Shown: one piece after another, positions 5,881-63,532 of the stretch
How positions within the stretch are numbered: position 1 is the stretch's first letter
Layout: each line of letters starts with the position of its first letter
Assembly (NCBI GenBank): GCA_045563055.1
Contig: JBJKUR010000009.1
Coordinates: 19,454 to 83,453 of the forward strand
Origin: Alphaproteobacteria bacterium
GTDB lineage: Bacteria > Pseudomonadota > Alphaproteobacteria > Methylaequorales > Methylaequoraceae
Reading direction: 5' to 3'
Length of the DNA stretch: 64,000 nucleotides
Translations under genes and position numbers: made by a program
Notes under the pieces: model-generated
What the model was told of the DNA's origin: nothing
Databases searched by the model: none
What the model saw: the letters and a program-made list of their open reading frames with translations, nothing else

Positions 5881-7167
5881 GTGAAAATCAAAGTTATTAA
5901 GATAGCAATTGCTGGGGTTGGAACAGTCGGAAGCGGTCTTCTAGATTTATTAAAGAAATTTAAAAAAACAAATTATAAAATCAAAATCACCCACATCGCA
6001 GCTAGAAGAAATTTTAATAAACTTAATAAATCTTTTCCAAATTCCAAGGTTTTTAAAGATGCTAAATCTCTCTTGGATGAATATGATTATGATGTTTTAG
6101 TTGAGCTTATTGGTGGTGAGGGTGGAATTGCAAAAAAAATTATATTTGATGCTTTAAAAAAAAAGAAACACGTTGTTACAGCAAATAAAGCTTTAGTATC
6201 AAAATATTGGCAGCAAATTGTAAAGTTAACGCAAACAAATGGTTGCACATTGAAATATGAAGCTGCGGTTGCCGGAGGAATCCCGATAATCAAAGTTATT
6301 GGGGAGTTTTTAATTTCTAATAAAATTAAGAAAATATATGGTATTCTAAATGGGACATCGAATTATATTCTTAGTAAAATGCTTTCATCGAATGGCGAGT
6401 TTAAAAATATATTAAAAGAGGCTCAAAGATTGGGTTACGCTGAATCTAACCCTAAATTTGATATCGATGGAACTGATACAGCTCAAAAATTGTCAATTTT
6501 GTCTTCTATAGCTTTTAACTCCAATAACAAAGTGCAAAAAATTCAAAATGAAGGTATTGAATCAATAAATTTGGTTGATCTAAAGATCGCAAATTCATTG
6601 GGATATAAAATAAAACTTTTGGGGCTAACGGAACAAAACAATAAAAAAATTAAAAATTATGTTTATCCATGTTTACTCTCAAAAGACTCATTTATAGCTA
6701 ATATTGATGGTGTATATAATGGGGTGGTTGTAGAATCTAATTTTTGTAATAAAAGTTGTTTTGTAGGAGAGGGTGCCGGAGCTAACCCGACAGCCACATC
6801 TGTTCTTAGCGATATAATTTTTCTTATAGAAATGGACAATCAAATTACGATGCCCAAAACTTTAATAAATAACTATGAGTTTGTTGATTTGAAGTCTAGG
6901 TATGGAAGCTATTATCTTAGATTTACTACAGATGATAAATCGGGAGTAATCTCTGGAATCGCTAATGAATTTAAGAGATTTAATATTTCAATGAAATCCA
7001 TGCTCCAAAAAGAAACTCATCAATCAAATTCTAAAGATGCAACGATTGTTATAACAACACATAATTGTTACGAAAAAAATATGATGGATGCTCTCTCAAA
7101 AATTAATACTCTTGGATTTATCAGAGAGAAAACAGTTTATATAAGAATAGAAAATTTAAATAATTGA
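5881..7167 (+). CDS. hom: Homoserine dehydrogenase
   Basis: 428 aa. NAD-binding N-terminus (IAGVGTVGSG), catalytic-domain motifs (GEGAGANPTA) and a C-terminal ACT-like domain. Confidence 0.85.
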   Translation: MKIKVIKIAIAGVGTVGSGLLDLLKKFKKTNYKIKITHIAARRNFNKLNKSFPNSKVFKDAKSLLDEYDYDVLVELIGGEGGIAKKIIFDALKKKKHVVTANKALVSKYWQQIVKLTQTNGCTLKYEAAVAGGIPIIKVIGEFLISNKIKKIYGILNGTSNYILSKMLSSNGEFKNILKEAQRLGYAESNPKFDIDGTDTAQKLSILSSIAFNSNNKVQKIQNEGIESINLVDLKIANSLGYKIKLLGLTEQNNKKIKNYVYPCLLSKDSFIANIDGVYNGVVVESNFCNKSCFVGEGAGANPTATSVLSDIIFLIEMDNQITMPKTLINNYEFVDLKSRYGSYYLRFTTDDKSGVISGIANEFKRFNISMKSMLQKETHQSNSKDATIVITTHNCYEKNMMDALSKINTLGFIREKTVYIRIENLNN

Positions 7168-8349
7168 AAGAGTGTCAGGGATTTTTTTTCCAATTAGTGG
7201 TTTGCAATAGCTTAGAAACCTCTTTGTTACAAAGAATTTTTTTCGATCATAAAATTCATCAGGCATAACTTTGGTTTTTCCAGCTATTGCCTCTAACTTG
7301 TTTATAATAAAACTTGTTCTATAAATACTGCCAAAACTCTTTCTTTCTTTAATTCCAATTGAAAAAGAAGTTTTTAATTTATTTGAATAATTTACAGCTT
7401 TAAGACCAATCTGCAGTGCTTCTTTCTGATCAACCTCTGAACTTGATCCAAGAAATGATCTCTGAGAATAACCCAGTGTATCTGCTCTCACTCTAGATAT
7501 TTGTAATTTTTGTTTAACTGCATTAGCTAAGTAATCCCCCAACATGCCGCTTCCTGACAGTTGAATATTACCATGTGCATCATACTCATTTATTTTTTTG
7601 AGCTTTTCGGTAAACAATTTGTTTTTTTTATTTTTTATTCCCTCTGAAACTGCTATCACACATCTTCCATAGCTGTTGTAAACATTTTTTATGCTCTCTA
7701 AAAAATCATTTAAACTAACGGAATGTTCTGGGATAAAAATTAAATGTGGACCGTCATTTTGCTTTGATTTTAATAAAGCTGAAGATGCAGCAAGAAATCC
7801 TGCATGTCTTCCCATTACTACTCCGATATATACCCCAGGAAGAGATTTAACATCGTAATTGATTCCTGAAAAAAGTTGTGCGACATATTTTGCTGCCGAA
7901 CCAAACCCTGGTGTATGATCATTTAAAACTAAATCATTGTCTATAGTTTTGGGGACATGAATACATTGAAGGTCATAGTTTTTATTATAAGCAAATTCTG
8001 AAATTATTCTTAAGCTATCAGATGAGTCATTGCCACCGATGTAATAAAATTTGTTGATCTTTTTTTCCTTTAACACGCTAAAAATTTCACGACAGTACTC
8101 TTTATCTGGTTTGTCTCTTGTGGAACCCAAAGCTGCCCCAGGAGTTGTTTTTAATAATTGCAGTTCAGAAGAGGAAAATTTGCTTAATGACATGAATTTA
8201 TTATTAATTATTCCACTAACACCGTTAAATGCACCCAAAACTTTTGATTTTTTCTTTGTTTCATTAATTATGATGCCAACCAAAGATTGATTGATTACAT
8301 TGGTTGGCCCACCACCCTGAGCGATTAATATATTATTACTAATGGACAT
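7156..8349 (-). CDS. pfp: 6-phosphofructokinase family protein (PfkA/Pfp type, possibly PPi-dependent)
   Basis: 397 aa. N-terminal LIAQGGGPTNVIN, YYIGGNDSSDS and PKTIDNDL motifs define the PFK fold. Its length is typical of alphaproteobacterial Pfp. Confidence 0.65.
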   Translation of the reverse strand: MSISNNILIAQGGGPTNVINQSLVGIIINETKKKSKVLGAFNGVSGIINNKFMSLSKFSSSELQLLKTTPGAALGSTRDKPDKEYCREIFSVLKEKKINKFYYIGGNDSSDSLRIISEFAYNKNYDLQCIHVPKTIDNDLVLNDHTPGFGSAAKYVAQLFSGINYDVKSLPGVYIGVVMGRHAGFLAASSALLKSKQNDGPHLIFIPEHSVSLNDFLESIKNVYNSYGRCVIAVSEGIKNKKNKLFTEKLKKINEYDAHGNIQLSGSGMLGDYLANAVKQKLQISRVRADTLGYSQRSFLGSSSEVDQKEALQIGLKAVNYSNKLKTSFSIGIKERKSFGSIYRTSFIINKLEAIAGKTKVMPDEFYDRKKFFVTKRFLSYCKPLIGKKIPDTLSII

Positions 8350-11383: not shown

Positions 11384-13396
11384 TCAAAACCTTTTTGATA
11401 TCTTACCAAAGAGAGTGAATTCTGGCATTGGATAAACACTAGCAGAATTGTAGGTGCTAGCACTCCCAACTCCATATCTGTAATATTTTTTATTTGTTAC
11501 ATTGTACCCAACTAAGGAGTAATCAAAACCATATAAATTCCCCTTGATTCCAATATTAGTCAAAACAAATTCAGGGTTTTTTATTTGAAAGTTTTTTGTA
11601 TCATTTATCAATCTTGATGATCCTCTATAATTAACATTAGCAAACAGCGTTAAACCATCTAATAAATCAAAGTCGATATTAAATTTATTGATCATGCTCG
11701 GGATTCCTGGAATTTCCTTGCCTTTGTAATTTGGGCCTTCTCTTAACTTTGCTTTTATAACATCAAAAGCGTTTGAAATAGTAATTTTATCAATTGGTTT
11801 GAAGGTCAACAATGATTCATATCCATATCTTTTTGTTGCTGGTAAATTTTTATTTAAGAAATCAACAGCATCAAAAATAATCTCTCCACGAATTCTCATA
11901 TAATAAAAGTTATTTGAGATCGAAAAACTCCTGTAATTAATTTTATGTCCTATTTCAAAGTCATTTGAAACTTGTGAGTTCATTTTAAAATCATGAGGAA
12001 CGGAAAAGCCCTGCGCTCCAACTCTTTCGTCTACATTTGGATATCTAAATGTTTTGGATACTCTTCCAAAGACGGTGCCGTATTCATTAAAGTTATTCTC
12101 AATACCTAAATGATAAGCATATAGAGGTTCAAATGTTAAAGAGTCTTCAAAATCTTTTCCAGCTCCACTCGCAGGACCAACTGAATCGGATGCTTTAAGC
12201 CAATTCCCTTGATATCGTGCGCCTGCACCAATTTTAAGAGTATTTGTAATTAGTAAATCTGTATTAAAGTAAAACCCAAGATTACTATCAGAGAATTTAT
12301 ATGTTTGTTTTGTTGGGAAACCATCTGATGCCATTCTATCAGAATTATAATATGTGTATTGTGAGTCAACTCCAGAAATAAATTTCAAAGATTTCCCATA
12401 AAATTTGTTTGATATTTTTATTTTGGGATTTAAAGATACCGAATAAAGTTTGGTATCTGTTACCCCCGAGGTAAAAAACCCTTCTGAATGATTAAATCTG
12501 TAGCTTCCATCAACAATTAACTGTGTATTAGGTTCCAATTCGTGTACAAGGCTGTAGAAGGCTTTGGCACCATCACTTGTTGCAAAATCCGCAAGTGTAG
12601 TCGATCTTCTTCTATCTATTTTGTAGTAATCGGTTGACGTATCAGGCCAACCATTTATTGCAACAACACCAGGCAACCCCATAAACTGTTTATCACCCGT
12701 GATATTTAAATGCAATAAAGTGTTAGTATTTATTTGTGAGTTCACCTCTAGATTAGCATTTTGTTGTCTTAGTTCATTATTTCTCCTATAACCATCTGCT
12801 TTTGAATAATTAGCGTTACCGGATACTGAAAAATTTTCAAAAACTTTAGAACCAGAGAAAGCTGCCTCAAATTGACCAAATGATCCAAATGCGGTTGAAA
12901 CTTCATAAGAATCATCGTCTTTTATAAATTGGTCTGTAATTATGTTTACTGCACCTGAAGTTGCATTACTTCCATATAATACACCAGCACTACCTCCTTT
13001 TATTATTTCGATTCTTTTTATGCTACTTACTGGCATTGTTGTAAAGTCTACAAAACTAGCATCAATATTTGATAATCTTTGTCCGTTTAAAAGAATTAGA
13101 GTATTTGACTTTGCTGTATCAGCAAAACCTCGAATATCGATACTTTCTTTTGCTCCAAAACCTGTTCCATATAATGATTTAAACTCAATGCCTGGTAATC
13201 TGGAAATAATCTGAACAAGTGAATCGTTTGGATATTGTTTAATGTATTCTTCATTAAGCACATGAGTAACTGCTCCAGTTAATTGTTCATCTAAAAGTTT
13301 TGATGATGTTACAGTAATTTCTTTAAAATTTTCATCAGCATAACTGTTAAAAAAATAAAATAAGAATGTTATAGTGTAGATTAAACGAAAATTCAT
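11384..13396 (-). CDS. btuB: TonB-dependent outer-membrane receptor, probably a BtuB-like cobalamin/corrinoid transporter given the upstream riboswitch
   Basis: 670 aa. Signal peptide, plug domain with TonB box, and a beta-barrel ending in a C-terminal aromatic residue (…GKISKRF). Preceded by a cobalamin riboswitch. Confidence 0.75.
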   Translation of the reverse strand: MNFRLIYTITFLFYFFNSYADENFKEITVTSSKLLDEQLTGAVTHVLNEEYIKQYPNDSLVQIISRLPGIEFKSLYGTGFGAKESIDIRGFADTAKSNTLILLNGQRLSNIDASFVDFTTMPVSSIKRIEIIKGGSAGVLYGSNATSGAVNIITDQFIKDDDSYEVSTAFGSFGQFEAAFSGSKVFENFSVSGNANYSKADGYRRNNELRQQNANLEVNSQINTNTLLHLNITGDKQFMGLPGVVAINGWPDTSTDYYKIDRRRSTTLADFATSDGAKAFYSLVHELEPNTQLIVDGSYRFNHSEGFFTSGVTDTKLYSVSLNPKIKISNKFYGKSLKFISGVDSQYTYYNSDRMASDGFPTKQTYKFSDSNLGFYFNTDLLITNTLKIGAGARYQGNWLKASDSVGPASGAGKDFEDSLTFEPLYAYHLGIENNFNEYGTVFGRVSKTFRYPNVDERVGAQGFSVPHDFKMNSQVSNDFEIGHKINYRSFSISNNFYYMRIRGEIIFDAVDFLNKNLPATKRYGYESLLTFKPIDKITISNAFDVIKAKLREGPNYKGKEIPGIPSMINKFNIDFDLLDGLTLFANVNYRGSSRLINDTKNFQIKNPEFVLTNIGIKGNLYGFDYSLVGYNVTNKKYYRYGVGSASTYNSASVYPMPEFTLFGKISKRF

Positions 13397-13439
13397 TTTC
13401 CCGCTCCTAATTGCTTCTCAAATACTTCTATGTGAGTAT

Positions 13440-13702
13440 TAAGAAAAGTTAATGTATTAGTGGGGATTTAAAACCCACCGAGGTTAATCACGTCACCTCA
13501 ATGGAAATTAACCATAATCAGAAGACCTACCCGCAGCCTGATTGAATGACGCTTACTTAGCAGGTTTCCTGACTCATCGCTTAGATGTTGAACCGCCTTC
13601 CCAATTTATAACCAGTGGCGTAATGGCCCAACGAACAATTTACAGTAGCGGGGGCTGTGCTAGACTTTAACTAGTTTCCCTTTTAACCCTTGCGGGCACT
13701 AA
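13440..13702 (-). promoter_or_regulatory. Cobalamin (AdoCbl) riboswitch in the 5' leader of the TonB-dependent receptor gene
   Basis: The minus strand reads TAGTGCCCGCAAGGGTTAAAAGGGAA...CCCGCTACTGTAA...CGCCACTGG... and the B12 box GAGTCAGGAAACCTGC (plus-strand 13560-13575). Each matches a conserved cobalamin-riboswitch element. The region is GC-rich and structured in an AT-rich genome and ends in RBS AGGAG before the ATG at 13396. Confidence 0.6.
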
Positions 13703-13759
13703 ATAATATATTTATATTATTTTCAATACAAGAAATGTCAAATTATTACTAAATTAAAA

Positions 13760-47274: not shown

Positions 47275-48231
47275 ATGTGTATCGAAGAAAATAAAAACGA
47301 GTGGATAGTCAAAGATGATTTCAACAAGGAAAGAATCGATTATTGGCTTAAAAAAAATATTCCAAATATTTCTTATCCAATATTGTGTAAATTTATTAGA
47401 AAAGGAATTGTCAGGATAAATGGAAAAAGAACAAAAAATTCTCACATATTAAATACTGGAGATATAGTAAAGTTTTCTAGACAAATTAATATTGATAGTC
47501 CAAAAATTATAAAGGGAAACTACGATAAAAAATTTTCAGGATTTATTCAAAGCCTTATTTTATATAAAAACGAAGAAATAATAGCACTTAACAAACCATC
47601 CGGTCTTGCTGTTCAAGGAGGAAGTAAGGTTAAGTTAAACTTAGACCTAATGCTGGATTCATTAAAATTTAAACTAAAAGAGAGGCCAAGGCTAGTTCAT
47701 AGGTTGGATAAACAAACTTCGGGATTAATGATAATAGCAAGGACACTTAAAGCATCAAAATTTTATGCCGATCTATTTAAAAAAAGATTAATAGAGAAAA
47801 AATATTTGGCAATTGTTTCAGGAAAAATAAAAGAAAAAAATGGTAATATTACATCTCAAATATATATAAATGATAAAGCCTTTAATGCTTCAACTTTTTT
47901 TAAAGTTTTAGACATCAAACAAAACTTCACTTTTTTAATTTTAAAACCGATTACAGGTAGGAAACATCAGATAAGAAATCATTTAAATAGTATCGGCAAC
48001 CCTATATACGGCGAGACTAAATTTAAAAATTTTAATAATTTTAAATTAAATAATAATTTTCACTTACATTCTTATTCTTTAAATTTTAAAGATTCATTAA
48101 ATCAAAGTAAAAAAATTCTCTCTCCAATTCCCGATTATTTTTTAAATACTTTAAAGAAATATAATTTTGATAGCACTCTTAAAGATTACAATCTTGAGTT
48201 AAATGAAATGAATAATTCTGTAAGAAATTAA
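47275..48231 (+). CDS. RluA-family pseudouridine synthase (RluC/RluD-like) with N-terminal S4 domain
   Basis: 318 aa. Catalytic motif HRLDKQTSGLMIIART. Confidence 0.75.
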   Translation: MCIEENKNEWIVKDDFNKERIDYWLKKNIPNISYPILCKFIRKGIVRINGKRTKNSHILNTGDIVKFSRQINIDSPKIIKGNYDKKFSGFIQSLILYKNEEIIALNKPSGLAVQGGSKVKLNLDLMLDSLKFKLKERPRLVHRLDKQTSGLMIIARTLKASKFYADLFKKRLIEKKYLAIVSGKIKEKNGNITSQIYINDKAFNASTFFKVLDIKQNFTFLILKPITGRKHQIRNHLNSIGNPIYGETKFKNFNNFKLNNNFHLHSYSLNFKDSLNQSKKILSPIPDYFLNTLKKYNFDSTLKDYNLELNEMNNSVRN

Positions 48232-48234
48232 CAA

Positions 48235-48897
48235 ATGATTGAAGTAAAGGAAATTAAAGATAAATTTTATTTTTACAGAAAAGATAAAATAATTACTACA
48301 CCTAATAACAGTATGTTAGTAGTTAAAAATAAAAATCATGCTAAAAGTATTTTAGATGCTTTAAAAAAACCAAAAAACAATAATAACTCAAGTTCAATTT
48401 TAAACCTTACTTTTTTTTCTTGTAACCTTGATGAAAAGGAAAAAATTTTGATAATAAACAAAATTTTAGAAATTTTGAGATGTGACTCCATTCTTTATAG
48501 ATGTTTTAACGATAAGAAATTATTAGATTTGATGAATAAAAACCTAAATTTTCATATTAACAAATTCAGTAAAAAATTTAATACCAAAATCAAGTTTTTA
48601 GATACAATCTTATCAACATTTAATGAAGAAAATCATAATTTTAGGGAATTTTTAAAAAAAATTGATAAATTTCGTTTAACAGTCTTATATAAATCAGGTA
48701 TGCATACAAAATCATCCATTCTTAGTTATTTTTTTATGAATGGTGAGATTGATTATAAAGCTTTGTATAAATTATCTAACCTAGAGTATATTTATCAACA
48801 AAGAGTATGGGGAAAAATAGACGAACATAAAATAATTGAGAAAGATAGTAAGATTGTATTAAAAAATCTTTCTTTTTTTTTAAACAATTTAGATTAA
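48235..48897 (+). CDS. Hypothetical protein, possibly an ATP12-family F1-ATPase assembly chaperone
   Basis: 220 aa. Weak N-terminal resemblance (KDKFYFYRKDKIITTPNNSMLVVKN) to ATP12 proteins, which often neighbour RluA genes in alphaproteobacteria. Not secure. Confidence 0.3.
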   Translation: MIEVKEIKDKFYFYRKDKIITTPNNSMLVVKNKNHAKSILDALKKPKNNNNSSSILNLTFFSCNLDEKEKILIINKILEILRCDSILYRCFNDKKLLDLMNKNLNFHINKFSKKFNTKIKFLDTILSTFNEENHNFREFLKKIDKFRLTVLYKSGMHTKSSILSYFFMNGEIDYKALYKLSNLEYIYQQRVWGKIDEHKIIEKDSKIVLKNLSFFLNNLD

Positions 48898-48932
48898 TTA
48901 GTTTATAACTAAAATATAAAAAACTAAATATT

Positions 48933-52463: not shown

Positions 52464-52551
52464 GCGGTCGTGGCGGAACTGGTAGACGCGCAACGTTGAG
52501 GTCGTTGTAGGCCTAAAGCCTGTGGAAGTTCGAGTCTTCTCGACCGCACCA
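52464..52551 (+). tRNA. tRNA-Leu (anticodon GAG), class II with long variable arm
   Basis: Acceptor GCGGTCG/CGACCGC, anticodon stem-loop CAACG-TTGAGGT-CGTTG, encoded CCA. Confidence 0.85.
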
Positions 52552-52564
52552 AAAATTTAATCCT

Positions 52565-53818
52565 ATGAAATATATTTATAAGCATGGAAATCAATATTGG
52601 TACCAACGTGCTATTCCTCAAGAAATTTCCGATGTAATCGGGAAAAAATCAATAAAAATTTGTCTTAAGACAAATAAAATACCAATAGCAATAAAAAGAG
52701 CAAAGTTACAGGCACTTGAACATAAGAAAATGTTTAAAGACATTATAGATTCAAAGAAAAAAACTCTCTCAAAAATTTTTAAATTTAAAAAGATAAATAT
52801 TAGTAAATATGACTTGGAGTTTTCAGATGATAATGAAGAGATATTGAACAAGCTATTATTTAATAAAAGTGAACTTTTGAAACATCTTAATAAGATATCT
52901 CCTCAACAAGACAAAAGTTTTATAGATAAGATTGCAGTAGATATTAGTGATTTACCCTTAACCCTGAGTGAATCCTTAAATGAATATTTAAAAATTAAGA
53001 AAATTATGAGTAAAAAAAGGATAACGTCGATTAGGCAATCAATTAAGATAATGATAAAGCTTTGTAAAGATAAGCAAATAATAAATTATAACAAGTTAGA
53101 TGCAAAAATATTTAGAGACTATTTCATAAATTTAAATAAAATATCAACTGGAAAGAGAAATCAATCCAATATTCAAAATTTATTTTCTGAGATTTTTAAT
53201 AAATATCAAATTGAAAAAGGCAATCCATTTTCTAATTTAGATTGGCCTAGATATTATTCTAATAAGAAAATAAAAAGCTTTTCAAAAAGCGAATTAATGC
53301 AAATTAAAAAATTCTGTCTAGAAAAAAATGAACTTTCCAACTTAATTTGCGGTTTAATATTTGATACTGGGTGTTCGTTTAATGAGATTATTGGACTAGA
53401 AAATGAAGATTTGATCTTAACCAAATATAACCCACATATTGTCATAAGAACAAATTCAATTAGAAAAATAAATAACATATACAAGAAACGGACGATACCT
53501 TTGGTTGGACTCTCACTTGAATGTTTTAAAAAACTAGAGAGATCCAAAGATAGGAAAGAGTTACTTGGAAGTTATTTTAATAAGGATTTACAAAATCCTA
53601 AATCCTTTGAAAATTATTTAAATAACATATTAAAAACAAAAACTAATGGCAAAACATTCATTTCATTTGGTATGTCAATTATTGAAAGGTTAAAAGAGGC
53701 AGGTTGTCCTGAAAATATTATTTCGGAAATTATTGGACAGTCTAAAAAACCATCGTTCTATGAAAGTGAGTTAAATCTAGATATAAAAACTAGTTGGATG
53801 AAACAAATTATCATATAA
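52565..53818 (+). mobile_element. Phage-integrase-like (tyrosine recombinase family) gene 13 nt downstream of tRNA-Leu. Catalytic residues possibly degenerate.
   Basis: 417 aa. The N-terminal arm-type domain follows the xYWYQRAIPxxI…GKKSIKICLKT pattern common to tRNA-associated integrases. C-terminal blocks resemble box I/II (GLIFDTGCSFNEIIGL; SIIERLKEAGCPENIISEIIGQ…SFYE), but the canonical Arg/His/Arg positions look substituted. Confidence 0.55.
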
Positions 53819-59351: not shown

Positions 59352-59429
59352 GGTGGTTGTAGCTCAGTTGGTTAGAGCGCTGGTTTGTGGTACCGGAGGC
59401 CGGGGGTTCAAATCCCCTCAGCCACCCCA
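59352..59429 (+). tRNA. tRNA-His (anticodon GTG), with encoded G-1 and CCA
   Basis: Acceptor GTGGTTG/CAGCCAC, extra 5' G pairing with discriminator C73 (a His-tRNA hallmark), anticodon loop TTGTGGT. Confidence 0.85.
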
Positions 59430-59473
59430 TTTAATTTCCTTTTATTTATAATTTTAAGCATTAAATATTAGAA

Positions 59474-60490
59474 ATGCTAAGTATAAATGGTCTAAGTTCA
59501 GCGTTTCCTAAAAATAGAGTCTATCAAGAAGACATTAAAGATATAGGCAGAAAGTTATTTTCATCAAAAATAAATTTTAAAAAAATGGAAAAAGTTTATG
59601 ATAACTCTGGAGTAAAAACAAGATATCTTACCGAACAACTTAATTGGTACCTAAATGAACATAATTGGTCTGAAAGAAACTATTTATTTAAAAAAAATGC
59701 CGTTTCTCTATTAAAAAAATCAATAGAAGAAACAATTCTAAAGACAAATACAACTCCAGAAAAAATAGGTGGTATAATTCTTGTTAATAGTACTGGTATT
59801 TCTACACCAAGTATTGATGCTGAAATTTTTAATTTGTTTAACTTTAATAATGAAATTGTTCGCCTACCAATCTTTGGATACGGATGTGCTGGTGGTGTTT
59901 TGGGATTAAACAGAGCTGTAGAGATTTTTAAAAGTGTAAGAAAATCTATTCTTGTTTGTAATGTTGAGCTGTGTAGCCTTACATTTAGACCTCAAATCTT
60001 TAGTAAAGAAAATATAGTTAGTACAGCTCTATTTGGTGATGGATGTGTATCTTATTTGGTAGAGGAGGGCGGAGATTGCAACTTATTAGAATCAAAAGAG
60101 TATACTTGGAAAAATTCTTTGTCTTTAATGGGGTGGGGTGTAGAAGACGATGGATTATCAGTAATTTTTGACAAAATCATTCCAGAATTTATAACAAAAA
60201 GATTACCATACGTTTTAAGTAATTTTCCGTTAAAAAATTTAAATGGTTACGTTCTTCATTCTGGAGGAATGAGAATTATTGAAGCTTATAAAAAAATTTT
60301 GAATAATAATAAGACTATTCAAGAGTCCGAGGAAATTCTTTCTAATTTTGGAAATGTTTCATCTGTTTCAGTTTTACTAGTATTAATGCAAATGATAAAA
60401 AAAAAATATAGTGGTACATTCTTAATGAGTGCACTTGGACCTGGTTTTACCGCAGGTTTATCAGGGGTTAAAATAGGTTCTAATGGTTGA
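59474..60490 (+). CDS. Type III polyketide synthase, BpsA/SrsA-like alkylpyrone/alkylresorcinol synthase
   Basis: 338 aa. Cys-His-Asn triad in context (IFGYGCAGGVLGL; LHSGGMRII; NFGNVSSVSVLLVL). Strong block similarity to Bacillus BpsA (STGISTPSIDAE, VELCSLTFRPQ, ALFGDGCVSYL, LMGWGVEDDGLSVIF, ALGPGFTAG). Confidence 0.8.
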   Translation: MLSINGLSSAFPKNRVYQEDIKDIGRKLFSSKINFKKMEKVYDNSGVKTRYLTEQLNWYLNEHNWSERNYLFKKNAVSLLKKSIEETILKTNTTPEKIGGIILVNSTGISTPSIDAEIFNLFNFNNEIVRLPIFGYGCAGGVLGLNRAVEIFKSVRKSILVCNVELCSLTFRPQIFSKENIVSTALFGDGCVSYLVEEGGDCNLLESKEYTWKNSLSLMGWGVEDDGLSVIFDKIIPEFITKRLPYVLSNFPLKNLNGYVLHSGGMRIIEAYKKILNNNKTIQESEEILSNFGNVSSVSVLLVLMQMIKKKYSGTFLMSALGPGFTAGLSGVKIGSNG

Positions 60491-60977
60491 TACCTATTTA
60501 ATGATTTATGTTGTTTTTAGTAGATTATTTGAACTTGTTTTGAGTAAAAAAAATACAAAAAGATTGCTTGAAGCTGGTGCTGAGGAATATTATCCGTTTC
60601 ATTATAAATTTATTGTTTTGTTTCATGTTATTTTTGTTTCATTTTTTTTAGTCAAATCTTTTTTTAACGCAAATGTTAATATTCAATATCTATATTTTTT
60701 TTTTTTTCTTCAACTTTTTAGATATTTCATTATCTATCAGCTTGGAAAATTCTGGACTACAAGAATATTAGTGATAAATAAACCATTAGTAAAAACATGG
60801 ATATTTAAATATTTGAGGCATCCAAACTATTTAGTTGTGTTTTCAGAAATAATATTAATTTGTTTATTTTTTAACGATTTTTATTCGTTAATTATTTTCT
60901 GTACCATCAATTCTATTTTAATTAGTATCAGAATACATTACGAAGAAAAAGCAAACAAATTTAGACAAGAATTATAA
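60483..60977 (+). CDS. ICMT / phospholipid-methyltransferase-family membrane methyltransferase (BpsB/YpbQ-like), translationally coupled to the PKS
   Basis: 164 aa, about 5 TM. C-terminal family motif YLRHPNYLVVFSEI…IRIHYEEKANKFRQE. Its ATG overlaps the PKS stop by 8 nt. Confidence 0.7.
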   Translation: MVDTYLMIYVVFSRLFELVLSKKNTKRLLEAGAEEYYPFHYKFIVLFHVIFVSFFLVKSFFNANVNIQYLYFFFFLQLFRYFIIYQLGKFWTTRILVINKPLVKTWIFKYLRHPNYLVVFSEIILICLFFNDFYSLIIFCTINSILISIRIHYEEKANKFRQEL

Positions 60978-60983
60978 TGTTAA

Positions 60984-61033
60984 GTTTGTGGTTCCGGATG
61001 TCGGGGGTTCAAATCCCCTCAGCCACCCCATTT
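60984..61033 (+). repeat. 50-nt direct repeat of the 3' half of tRNA-His (att-like site) bounding the PKS-MT insert
   Basis: AGTTTGTGGTTCCGGATGTCGGGGGTTCAAATCCCCTCAGCCACCCCATTT matches tRNA-His 59383-59432 (anticodon loop through CCA+TTT) at 47 of 50 positions. Confidence 0.8.
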
Positions 61034-61048
61034 CTATTATAATTTTTA

Positions 61049-61459
61049 TTATTTTGAAATATTTTTTAAAACTCCAAGGTAACTTTTCACTAACTTTTTC
61101 CCTGTCTGGTTGGACTTTTTCCATATAGGTAATGTTTCTTTAAGTTTATTATAACCATTATTCGTTAATTTAAGAAGGTTTCCGTTGGCACTCCTTTTAA
61201 CAATTCTGATTAATTTATTTTTTATTAAAATAGATGAATTTCTTCTTACAGTAGATTTTTCTAAATTTAATAATTCTGCTATCTTTGACGTTTCAATTTG
61301 ATTGTAAATATTTAATAGTGCTAAAATAGGTATCTGCGTTGAATTCACACCATAAGACTTTAGTGATGTATTGTAACTATTAGTTAGTTCCCTTGCCATT
61401 TTTCTAAGATTAAAACAAGTGCATTGTTCTAGTTCTTTAACTTTAATAAGTTTCTTCAT
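61049..61459 (-). CDS. MarR-family winged-helix transcriptional regulator
   Basis: 136 aa. wHTH region IPILALLNIYNQIETSKIAELLNLEKSTVRRNSSILIKNKLI. Confidence 0.6.
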   Translation of the reverse strand: MKKLIKVKELEQCTCFNLRKMARELTNSYNTSLKSYGVNSTQIPILALLNIYNQIETSKIAELLNLEKSTVRRNSSILIKNKLIRIVKRSANGNLLKLTNNGYNKLKETLPIWKKSNQTGKKLVKSYLGVLKNISK

Positions 61460-61510
61460 GGTATTTAATATATTACTTTACAAATTATTAAAAAAGAATA
61501 ATTATTAAAG

Positions 61511-61532
61511 TGTATATACGCGGGTATATACA
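61511..61532. promoter_or_regulatory. Perfect 9-bp inverted repeat (TGTATATAC-GCGG-GTATATACA), a putative operator in the divergent MarR / hydrolase intergenic region
   Basis: Seen directly in sequence. Lies between divergently transcribed genes, the typical position for a MarR autoregulatory operator. Confidence 0.5.
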
Positions 61533-61571
61533 TTACAAATACTTATATAATTATTTTTTGAAAGTGGTTAA

Positions 61572-62399
61572 ATGAAAATTGAAAAATTTAATTTGGATGA
61601 TGGAACTTATATTAGAATCAAAAAAATTGGAAAAGGAAAACCTATCTTATTACTTCATACATTTAGAAATAGATTAGAATACTCTGATAAGCTTGGTGAA
61701 TTGTTAAAAAATAAATTCACTGTATATTCAATTGATCTTCCAGGGTTTGGCGATTCCCCAATCAATATAAAAACAAACTATAATCTTGATTTTTTTACTA
61801 AATCGATAGTTAGTTTTATACAAAAATCAAAAATTAAAAATTTGACTATAGCTGGAGAATCAATTGGAGCAAATCTAGCAGCAAGTGTATCTGATGCACT
61901 TCCAAGAATTGTCACAAAAATATTCATGTTTAATCCATACGATTATGATTCCTTCTTCGGTGAGGGTATTCAGAGAGGTAATTTTTTTGCAAAATTTATT
62001 TTATTTCATGTAAGTATCCCTTTCATTGGTAATTTATTTGCTAGTTTAGAGAATAAATTTATACTAAAAAATATTATGAATGGTGGGTTTTTCGATAAAA
62101 CCAAACTACCTGATGAATATTTGGATTTATTGTGTTCTTCATTAAATAAAAAAGGATATGTTTATCATTTTAGAAAGGTACTATCACAATTTAATAAAAA
62201 TAATGGAATTAGAGATCTATACAAAAGAGTAACAGTGCCAGTAAAACTTTTTTATGGAAGTTATGATTGGGCCACAGAATCTGATAAATTACAAACACAA
62301 AGTTTGTTAAAGTTAGACAAATTTGAAACGATAGATAAATCAGCCCATTTTTCATTTTTGGAAAACACAAAGGAGGTTGCGGATATTATTAAAACTTAA
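61572..62399 (+). CDS. Alpha/beta-fold hydrolase
   Basis: 275 aa. Nucleophile elbow GESIG and HTFRNRLEYSD oxyanion region. Confidence 0.7.
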   Translation: MKIEKFNLDDGTYIRIKKIGKGKPILLLHTFRNRLEYSDKLGELLKNKFTVYSIDLPGFGDSPINIKTNYNLDFFTKSIVSFIQKSKIKNLTIAGESIGANLAASVSDALPRIVTKIFMFNPYDYDSFFGEGIQRGNFFAKFILFHVSIPFIGNLFASLENKFILKNIMNGGFFDKTKLPDEYLDLLCSSLNKKGYVYHFRKVLSQFNKNNGIRDLYKRVTVPVKLFYGSYDWATESDKLQTQSLLKLDKFETIDKSAHFSFLENTKEVADIIKT

Positions 62400-62467
62400 A
62401 TAATAATTCATGTAAAATATAAAGCTTAATAAACAATAAGATACAATTTTAAAAAGGAGTAATCAGT

Positions 62468-63199
62468 ATGAATAAAGTAGCATTTATTTCAGGAGCTAAT
62501 AGAGGTATAGGGTTTGAAACCGCTAAAAAGTTATCTGAAACAGGAGTCAAAGTAATTTTAGGTTCTAGAGATTTAAATAAAGGTAAAGAAGCATTAAATA
62601 AATTATCTAACCTTGGAATAGAAGCCGATTTAGTCCAATACAACGCATTTGAACAAGATGCACCTGAGAAAGTTTACAATTATATTTCAGATAAATACAA
62701 AAAATTAGATATTCTTATAAATAATGCTGGCGTTCTTTTAACAGGGAATTTATTTGTTACGAATAGTTCCACAGTAAGTGAAAAGGACATTAAAGATACA
62801 TTTCAAACAAATCTTTTTTCAGTTATTTCTCTAACTCAAAAATTACTTCCACTAATTAAAAAGTCAGATGCTGGAAGAATTGTTAATGTTTCCACAATTT
62901 TAAGTTCTTTAACGCTTCATTCAGCTAAAGACTCTCCAATTTCTCCAGCAAAAGAATTTGCATATAATGCATCCAAGACCGCATTAAATGCCTTTACAAT
63001 TCACCTGGCGAATGAATTAAAAGATACAAAAATCAAGGTTAACTCTGGTCATCCAGGCTGGGTAAAAACAGATTTAGGCGGTCCTAATGCACCTATGGAG
63101 GTAAAAGACAGTTTTAAAACATCATTACGTTTAGCTACCTTGGACTCTGACGGGCCCAGTGGAGGACTTTTCCACGAAGACGATGTTATACCATGGTAG
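62468..63199 (+). CDS. Short-chain dehydrogenase/reductase (SDR)
   Basis: 243 aa. Cofactor motif ISGANRGIGFETA, catalytic YNASK, NNAG. Confidence 0.8.
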   Translation: MNKVAFISGANRGIGFETAKKLSETGVKVILGSRDLNKGKEALNKLSNLGIEADLVQYNAFEQDAPEKVYNYISDKYKKLDILINNAGVLLTGNLFVTNSSTVSEKDIKDTFQTNLFSVISLTQKLLPLIKKSDAGRIVNVSTILSSLTLHSAKDSPISPAKEFAYNASKTALNAFTIHLANELKDTKIKVNSGHPGWVKTDLGGPNAPMEVKDSFKTSLRLATLDSDGPSGGLFHEDDVIPW

Positions 63200-63292
63200 A
63201 AAAATATTTTTCTTAATTTATATAATTAGAGATAATTACGGGTGGTACTGAATGAATAAGTAAAAGGGGTTTATCACCCCTTTTAAAATTAT

Positions 63293-63532
63293 TTATTTCT
63301 TTAGAATTGCAAGTGCTCTATCAAATATTTTTTCTGCATTATCAAGCTCACCAATTTGAAGTTTTTTTTCTCCTTTTGATCTCAATTCAGAAACTTTAGC
63401 AAATGTTTGAGTGTTAATACTTTTATTTGAGAAAAGTTTAGTATCAACTTCTGCCATTTTTTGATATGGACAAGCATTTACATCTAAGCTTAAGAACAAT
63501 ATGAAGCTGAATAGAAATGTAATTTTTTTCAT
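63293..63532 (-). CDS. Small secreted hypothetical protein
   Basis: 79 aa. Signal peptide MKKITFLFSFILFLSLDVNA. Confidence 0.35.
   Translation of the reverse strand: MKKITFLFSFILFLSLDVNACPYQKMAEVDTKLFSNKSINTQTFAKVSELRSKGEKKLQIGELDNAEKIFDRALAILKK

Follow-up and report, generated by a model that had tools for sequence, protein, structure and literature searches.

Bacillaceae, Sporomusaceae and Streptomyces are known to carry two-gene loci in which a type III polyketide synthase (PKS) is paired with an ICMT-like methyltransferase, and BpsB and DquB have been described as the ICMT-like O-methyltransferase partners (PMC9827899). The known pairs, BpsA/BpsB of Bacillus subtilis, SrsA/SrsB of Streptomyces griseus and DquA/DquB of Sporomusaceae, make alkylpyrone or alkylresorcinol methyl ethers. 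Small genomic islands next to tRNA genes are likewise known from marine bacteria. In the tRNA-linked islands of SAR11, a partial tRNA repeat marks where a gene cassette was inserted (Microbiome 2025, PMC11796062), and in the tRNA-anchored tycheposon islands of Prochlorococcus, successive integrations push older elements inward (bioRxiv 10.1101/2020.12.28.424599). Passages of the pelagiphage literature describe temperate phages with tyrosine integrases whose attP exactly duplicates a portion of a host tRNA gene, and report about half of the SAR11 tRNA genes as phage attachment sites; these passages do not mention tRNA-His as a target (bioRxiv 10.1101/410191; PMC8477408). Here we analyze 64,000 nucleotides of contig JBJKUR010000009.1, referred to as the window, from an alphaproteobacterial metagenome-assembled genome (MAG), in which a PKS gene and an ICMT-family methyltransferase gene (PKS-ICMT) lie between a complete tRNA-His gene and a copy of its 3' half. 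We consider it probable that this 1.6-kb PKS-ICMT unit is an integrase-less cargo cassette that occupies the tRNA-His attachment site in a marine alphaproteobacterium with a streamlined, AT-rich genome (SAR11-like and possibly of the HIMB59/AEGEAN-169 type). The features that define the site are the following.

59353..59429, plus strand: complete tRNA-His(GTG) with encoded CCA, the attL-like left boundary (ARAGORN; Rfam RF00005, 65.4 bits)
59383-59429, plus strand: left repeat copy, the 3' 47 nt of tRNA-His (allele A, variable loop AGGCC)
59430..59473, plus strand: leader of 44 nt (TTTAATTTCCTTTTATTTATAATTTTAAGCATTAAATATTAGAA) that precedes the PKS start codon and forms the left edge of the insert
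59474..60490, plus strand: type III PKS, 338 aa, with Cys138/His262/Asn294 (Pfam and PDB matches)
60483..60977, plus strand: ICMT-family integral-membrane methyltransferase, 164 aa (PF04140, 4.5e-18)
60984..61033, plus strand: attR-like fragment that repeats the 3' half of tRNA-His, from the anticodon loop through CCA plus TTT
59430..61030 (equivalently 59383-60983), plus strand: insert of 1,601 bp, consisting of leader, PKS, ICMT gene, 6-nt spacer and one repeat copy
61049..61459, minus strand: MarR-like regulator with a weak Pfam match, the first right-flank gene, outside the insert

In a repeat search, the two copies (59383-59432 and 60984-61033, at a spacing of 1601 nt) formed the strongest direct repeat of the region. 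They are identical at 47 of 50 positions, including all of the final 31 nt. The 28-nt core of the repeat occurs exactly twice in the window, and none of 100 dinucleotide shuffles contained any match to it. The repeat search, ARAGORN and Rfam thus bear out what the first-pass annotation had reported, a complete tRNA-His followed by a 47/50 copy of its 3' half. The insert is bounded by the intact tRNA-His gene and a direct repeat of its 3' part, and according to the ORF list and Pfam, the DNA between the repeats contains only two open reading frames (ORFs), neither of which encodes a recombinase, as had been annotated.

Both edges of the insert could be placed precisely. The 44-nt leader starts exactly where tRNA-His ends and is missing from the empty site described below; it is kept 5' of the PKS gene, with no preceding tRNA, in L094, L098, L102, L129 and others (labels L001-L149 denote the related metagenome, MAG, single-amplified genome (SAG) or viral contigs that were compared with the window). 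The conserved leader marks the 5' end of the cassette. On the other side, the attR-like fragment begins 6 nt past the ICMT stop codon. Its variable-loop allele is ATGTC and it carries one private A>T change, unlike the resident tRNA-His, which is identical to the tRNA-His of the empty-site contigs; the private change is also present in L128 and L129. A promoter and terminator scan gave 13 promoter-like sites versus 16 expected and 0 terminators, and was uninformative.

Empty sites were sought among contigs that encode the exact MarR-like protein of the window, which yielded L146 and L147 from different Tara assemblies. Both are 99.6% identical to the window across ~1,026 nt of the MarR/hydrolase flank, and the MarR-like protein is 100% identical between empty-site and occupied-site contigs. 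In both, this flank runs directly into a complete tRNA-His, which matches over 58/58 nt in L146 and 81/81 nt in L147. At the empty-site junction, the tRNA-His end ...CAGCCACCCCA is followed by TTTCTATTATAATTTTTATT... of the MarR flank, without an insert, and TTTCTATTATAA also stands directly 3' of the fragment in the window. Because L146 and L147 join tRNA-His to the MarR flank, the 1,601-bp segment represents an exact insertion/deletion polymorphism: precisely this stretch is missing from other genomes of the same population, which keep a single copy of the repeat. The attL/attR-like geometry that had been attributed to site-specific integration is thus based on a real, non-random repeat, and the comparison with close relatives has supplied the empty-site variants. 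In another relative, L018, an SDR gene directly follows tRNA-His.

The occupied right junction (ICMT, 6 nt, fragment, MarR flank) was found independently in L128 and L149. Contigs with the left flank, at 99-100% identity to the window and drawn from many samples, all stop within the tRNA, which is the expected outcome where a population branches at a polymorphic repeat. It is extremely improbable that the site is an assembly artefact, whether a contig chimera formed through the repeated tRNA-His or a collapse that produced the empty-site contigs. Many independent contigs and unitigs do end inside the repeat, and the window comes from a MAG; however, normal reads and the k = 127 named in L147 both exceed the identical stretch of 31 nt, and allele-specific bases lie within about 40 nt of each junction. 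Furthermore, three independent data sets contain the occupied right junction and two contain the empty one, and SAG loci (L129, L014, L015 and those of the L008 type) contain the same kind of bracketed cassettes.

An exact search of viral contigs with the 3' end of tRNA-His found three contigs from three metagenomes, L124-L126, none of which contains a complete tRNA gene. In these contigs a 47-nt block (GTTTGTGGTACCGGATGTC...CCCCA) lies between lysis genes and the gene for a tyrosine integrase, ~430 nt away. These phage features were noted at the following spans of the IMG/VR contigs.

L124: 5600-5646
L125: 5200-6817
L126: 689-2306

The integrase has 378 aa (PF00589, 6.7e-10; phrog_1, 1.2e-38), and the contigs also carry genes for a tail fibre that is 35-39% identical to Pelagibacter phage proteins, an endolysin, an ERF recombinase and a CI-like repressor. 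These contigs represent an uncultured temperate podovirus-like phage whose integrase and attP are identical across the three metagenomes. Among the matches listed for deposited phages, the integrase showed 25-26% identity, all below 60%; with no close deposited relative, it is not assignable to a named phage family. A scan for further viral relatives returned the same three contigs. The attP block matches the window fragment at 46/47 positions and the 3' half of the L014 tRNA-His at 47/47, and every chromosomal fragment starts at the same base as the phage attP identity block. The viral contigs thus carry a cognate integrase/attP pair for the tRNA-His att sequence, and their integrase is a candidate for acting in trans on the PKS-ICMT cassette. 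The first-pass annotation had proposed an integrase-less remnant or an element mobilized in trans, and this idea now has a concrete candidate in the form of phage contigs with a matching attP and a tyrosine integrase.

The alleles of the repeat point to the position of the crossover. Because the tRNA of the empty site has allele A and the fragment has the phage-like allele, the exchange would have taken place in the identical T-arm/acceptor stretch, and the left part of the fragment would have travelled with the cassette. An exchange in the anticodon loop predicts either an allele-A fragment or an empty site with the phage-like allele, and neither was observed. A crossover in the T-arm/acceptor stretch would fit an integrase and a homologous crossover within the 31-nt stretch equally well. 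In the mechanism that we propose, a tRNA-His-specific tyrosine integrase, supplied in trans, would have made the insertion, and the best candidate class would be that of the temperate phage above. The arrangement in the window could go back to a circular cassette that integrated, or to the loss of upstream modules by excision between copies of att. The involvement of an integrase, and of this phage integrase in particular, is inferred, as is the direction of the event.

A fragment profile searched with nhmmer matched at gene borders in L095 (2e-10), L098 (2.5e-8), L101 (4e-6) and L094 (8e-5), and twice in L130 (3e-12 and 2e-9); several weaker copies were present in other loci. At the position 6 nt past the ICMT stop codon, the following matches to the fragment were found.

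Window: 46/47
L128: 45/47
L129: 31/47, decayed
L095: 28/47, decayed
L094: nhmmer E 8e-5, decayed
L099: start of a copy, then the contig end

The background probability of a match of at least 28/47 is 3.6e-5 per position. In the loci with a fragment at this offset, the PKS is 85-100% identical to that of the window, and each locus has a different downstream gene; loci with a more distant PKS have nothing at the +6 offset. The fixed position of the fragment across contexts indicates that one repeat copy is inherited with the 3' end of the cassette. A related structure was noted in L001, a 1.46-Mb contig, where a pseudo-tRNA-His (1245-1321) has an intact 3' half of the phage-like allele and a decayed 5' half, is not called by ARAGORN, and lies 6.7 kb upstream of PKS-ICMT.

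The same site was examined in relatives. A scan of genome contigs for the neighbouring aminotransferase gave 6 useful relatives (L014-L019), the remainder belonging to distant phyla, and the module map as a whole covers about 30 loci. In L008-L012, tRNA-His is followed by a Methyltransf_23 gene and a 50-nt fragment, while PKS-ICMT lies 3.5 kb further on, directly before MarR-hydrolase-SDR and with no fragment. The first part of this arrangement is itself a one-gene cassette, which in L008 (1791-3068) consists of a 350-aa Methyltransf_23 gene between tRNA-His and a 49/50 copy of the fragment. In L015 and L019, tRNA-His is followed by a 3.4-kb trio of transglutaminase, Alpha-E and ATP-grasp genes and then by a fragment, with PKS-ICMT located later. 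The order in L099 is SDR, fragment, PKS-ICMT, fragment.

The region downstream of tRNA-His thus draws on a pool of modules in highly variable order: PKS-ICMT, MarR-hydrolase-SDR, photolyase, a COQ7-like gene, a periplasmic binding protein, SIP, the ATP-grasp trio, AAA-VWA, cNMP-binding and DoxX genes, and small ORFs. On its left side, at least 10 different neighbours of PKS-ICMT were counted, on its right side at least 9, and all of its contexts lie inside one island that extends from the aminotransferase/tRNA-His to the AAA-VWA region. This island is an array of shuffled modules of 1-3 genes, some of which are separated by intact or decayed tRNA-His fragments; the orientation of the modules is not strictly uniform, and no integrase was found in the related cassette-bearing loci examined. 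In the window, the MarR gene forms another module of the same island together with the hydrolase gene (61572-62399) and the SDR gene (62468-63199). This module follows PKS-ICMT in the window, L008, L097 and L100, and precedes it in L131 and L099; both orders can be seen by comparing L131 7647-11294 with window 59474-63199. The PKS gene often has a photolyase gene directly beside it (L095, L097, L113, L130). Past the SDR stop codon of the window (63235-63295) is a GGGG-TTTATCA-CCCC-TTTT hairpin with GGGTGGTACTGAATG ahead of it. By eye, GGGTGGTACTGAATG and the hairpin look like a tRNA-His fragment that has decayed, gained an insertion and possibly been reused as a terminator; this possible fragment (about 63240-63290) was not significant by nhmmer. 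In L099, the orthologous SDR gene is followed by an intact fragment.

The cassette could also be what is left of a larger element, a prophage or integrative element with PKS-ICMT as cargo that has lost its integrase and the rest. The attL/attR geometry without an integrase agrees with such a history, and temperate phages that target the tRNA-His site exist. However, the sequences adjacent to the repeats are the PKS leader and the ICMT stop codon plus 6 nt, unlike phage arms, and the same tight +6 right border recurs in at least 5 contexts and the same leader in many. Moreover, no PKS homologue was found in the viral contigs, and the GC and GC3 (GC at third codon positions) of the cassette match those of the flexible genes of the host. 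We therefore regard this origin as very unlikely.

Several observations weigh against the proposal of a cassette inserted by an integrase acting in trans. The link between the phage and the cassette is the identity of the att sequence alone; neither the PKS nor either cassette junction sequence was found in the viral contigs, and no integrase, excisionase or circular junction was found in the window or in any cassette-bearing locus. The complete junction of tRNA-His with the PKS leader is present in this MAG contig only, and independent unitigs end inside the repeat. Most relatives carry PKS-ICMT without a detectable flanking fragment, so that much of the shuffling may be homologous recombination, and the 31-nt perfect repeat could support a RecA-dependent deletion that gives the same empty site. 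On the functional side, the product chemistry of PKS-ICMT follows from family membership and homology only, and NCBIfam gave no equivalog-level match for the PKS, the ICMT protein or the integrase-like ORF described below.

Some of these observations are accommodated by homologous recombination, in which the fragments are old prophage scars and the present arrangements result from RecA deletion together with replacement of island segments through shared flanking genes, as in the 'flexible genomic island' model. A crossover within the 31 shared nucleotides yields the exact empty site, most PKS-ICMT loci are without a border fragment, all contexts fall within the one island, and no integrase lies nearby; homologous recombination has also been argued for another island in the HIMB59 island paper (PMC10734472). 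This explanation leaves three results unaccounted for: a fragment of the phage attP allele that begins 6 nt past the ICMT stop codon, a start base that is common to the fragments and coincides with that of the phage attP block, and different cargos that are each precisely bracketed by tRNA and fragment. In addition, a stretch of 31 nt is short for efficient RecA recombination. We consider homologous recombination an unlikely explanation of the locus and retain insertion of a cassette at the tRNA-His attachment site as the probable one.

A broader interpretation of the island is more tentative, and we put it forward as a doubtful extension. The region downstream of tRNA-His may be an integron-like cassette platform without a resident integrase, in which small modules of cargo alone, such as PKS-ICMT, would each bring along a portable version of a phage attP (the tRNA-His 3' half) and would be inserted, excised and reshuffled by the integrases of infecting temperate phages. 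If this were true, phage infection would drive the exchange of adaptive 1-3-gene cassettes among streamlined bacteria that rank with the most abundant of the ocean, and the exchanged traits would include the synthesis of methylated phenolic or quinone-like membrane lipids, possibly with the COQ7-like module, a frequent neighbour.

The identity of the two cassette genes was examined with domain and structure databases. The PKS exceeded the gathering scores of three Pfam families (PF00195, 2.4e-15; PF08392, 1.9e-10; PF02797, 2.9e-07) and matched 98 type III PKS sequences in PDB, of which the best was the alpha-pyrone synthase Pks11 of M. tuberculosis (2e-32), followed by THNS, CylI, Steely1 and Pks18. 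Among these relatives are long-chain pyrone/resorcinol synthases (Pks11, CylI, Pks18) as well as THNS. The catalytic triad, in the contexts GYGC138AGG, LH262SGG and FGN294VSS, aligns with GLGCVAG, SHPGG and IGNLSS of Pks11, and the Cys column is the residue mutated to Ser in the C138S crystal entry 4jat. The annotation of a type III PKS with an intact Cys-His-Asn triad is therefore upheld by the chalcone-synthase Pfam matches and the alignment to Pks11. Homologues at 77-79% identity carry the JGI name 'alkylresorcinol/alkylpyrone synthase', the PGAP name is 'type III polyketide synthase', and the only NCBIfam match is a sub-threshold one to DpgA.

The ICMT gene overlaps the PKS gene by 8 nt on the same strand, and both this overlap and the family assignment agree with the earlier annotation. 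The protein has an RHPNY motif (residue 112), an EE motif (154-155) and hydrophobic stretches, and shows a weak PDB match to the ICMT structure 4a2n that spans RHPxY and EE. In all 46 related loci with sequence at that position, the ICMT gene is directly 3' of the PKS gene. On this basis the PKS is predicted to be a long-chain alkylpyrone/alkylresorcinol-type synthase, and the ICMT protein its O-methyltransferase partner, similar to BpsB/SrsB. The PKS would condense malonyl-CoA with an acyl starter of long chain length and so produce alkylpyrones or alkylresorcinols, which the membrane methyltransferase would O-methylate to membrane phenolic lipids, as for BpsA/BpsB and SrsA/SrsB. In at least 8 loci, which represent several PKS lineages, PKS-ICMT has a COQ7-like di-iron hydroxylase gene as its immediate neighbour, either divergently upstream or downstream (L094 2015-2533, L129 7652-8170, L098, L101, L102, L002 9507-10019, L119 and L120). 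By analogy with SrsC, the COQ7-like protein might act together with the pair and hydroxylate the phenolic lipid in the direction of a quinone.

Homologues of the PKS, at 57-100% identity, occur in large numbers on AT-rich marine contigs, in metagenomes and in MAGs that bear the label Alphaproteobacteria or Rickettsiales, and PKS-ICMT of the relatives occupies the same island, mostly without intact flanking repeats. The cassette genes have a GC of 0.29 and 0.22 and a GC3 of 0.17-0.18, like the neighbouring flexible genes, and a foreign origin judged by composition was rejected. The PKS of the window is 93% identical to that of L129 and 75-76% identical to that of L014, while the adjacent aminotransferase is 80%, 78% and 82% identical among window, L129 and L014; the incongruent divergence of the two genes suggests exchange of the cassette within the clade. 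The cassette had been called horizontally acquired and unexpected in this setting. The interpretation as a site-specific insertion is supported, but the abundant homologues, the host-like GC and the shared island contradict a foreign or unusual character: the cassette is part of the clade's own flexible gene pool and not foreign DNA.

The nearest integrase-like gene of the window lies at a different tRNA.

ORF 52565-53818 (with tRNA, 52464-53818): integrase-like ORF, 417 aa, with a DUF6538 N-terminus, directly after tRNA-Leu(GAG)

This ORF matches the phrog_1 integrase (1.8e-16). PF00589 was undetected in it, and a PDB search gave no match, not even when a profile of 3 sequences was used. A weak alignment shows TGCS instead of the integrase TGLR, with Ser at the first catalytic Arg, so that this residue may be missing. 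L014 and L015 have homologues of 50% identity in the corresponding position and L016-L018 have none, and no tRNA-Leu fragment was found in the window. The ORF may be a domesticated or atypical recombinase. As an integrase for the tRNA-His site it was dropped, since no link was found.

Other features of the window concern its host. A phosphofructokinase gene (pfk; 7156-8349) and a cobalamin riboswitch (99 bits) upstream of a gene for a TonB-dependent receptor with a Plug domain (11384-13718) are each unusual for SAR11 subclade Ia; pfk has been reported for AEGEAN-169/HIMB59 and is missing from the dominant SAR11 Ia (PMC10308909). The best named relatives of the window GlnA are from Rhodospirillales (70-72%), with no Pelagibacter names among them. 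A host of the HIMB59/AEGEAN-169 type is plausible from pfk, the riboswitch and GlnA. Elsewhere, at 48000-48900, the GC falls to 20% over a 220-aa ORF (48235-48897) with no Pfam match, which sits between a pseudouridine synthase gene and propionyl-CoA carboxylase genes.

Taken together, the locus and the viral contigs provide attB (the empty site), attL/attR (the window) and a candidate attP with its integrase. In a clade with almost no mobile elements and no genetic tools, the mechanism of island gene flow becomes testable, and the att set could supply a site-specific integration system for SAR11/HIMB59-type bacteria. Among abundant marine alphaproteobacteria, the phenolic-lipid operon (for alkylpyrone/alkylresorcinol methyl ethers) seems to be a flexible trait that is common and tightly linked; we found no publication on such a trait. 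If the lipids are made, they would have a bearing on membrane properties, on stress or phage resistance and on the origin of such lipids in seawater.

Compared with known systems, the cassette resembles BpsA/BpsB and SrsA/SrsB in gene order and families: a PKS gene with the triad is followed immediately by an ICMT gene. Unlike those systems, the host is a streamlined planktonic alphaproteobacterium with no spores or cysts, and the pair belongs to the flexible genome as a module that has tRNA-derived att repeats as its boundaries. Instead of an SrsC-type flavoprotein, several relatives of the window have the adjacent COQ7-like di-iron hydroxylase gene. We found no published account of a type III PKS in SAR11 or HIMB59 in the literature. 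Viral contigs L124-L126 share the integrase/attP architecture of the pelagiphages, as described in the passages cited above, and have a tail fibre homologous to those of Pelagibacter phages; the element integrated at the window tRNA-His, in contrast, is a two-gene cassette and not a phage.

Integron cassettes are similar in being promoter-poor units of 1-2 genes, each with a 3' recombination site, arrayed beside a primary attachment site. The window repeat, however, is the 3' half of a tRNA and not a folded attC, and no IntI, attI or attC was found in the window region, so an integron cassette array was rejected. Cis-mobilizable elements (CIMEs) of the streptococcal integrative and conjugative element (ICE) families are integrase-less islands with functional att sites on either side that form and move by accretion with an element whose integrase uses the same site; they are larger, and their helper is conjugative. 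Unlike in CIMEs, a tandem of helper and cassette was not seen at window-type loci. As in tycheposon islands, elements are split by partial island tRNAs and there are degenerate remnants, scattered partial tRNAs and adaptive cargo. Tycheposons carry their own tyrosine recombinase and replication genes, whereas the window-type modules are 1-3 genes long and neither the insert nor the related islands examined contain a recombinase and replication module. Membership of the tycheposons was therefore rejected; for tycheposons and integrons alike, the defining genes are absent.

A close counterpart is the SAR11 island type, in which a small tRNA-adjacent island likewise has a partial tRNA repeat of >90% identity and no canonical mobile-element genes (PMC11796062). 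That description differs in that it concerns a Mediterranean genomospecies of SAR11 Ia, and neither tRNA-His nor a PKS cassette is named in its text. The type of operon (BpsA/BpsB-like) and the type of island (cassettes bounded by a partial tRNA) are both already described. Because they are known in other organisms, our finding extends known biology and does not define a new kind of system. Beyond the SAR11 islands, the present analysis adds an allele with the site empty, a phage attP that matches and is accompanied by its integrase, and evidence from the alleles on the position of the crossover.

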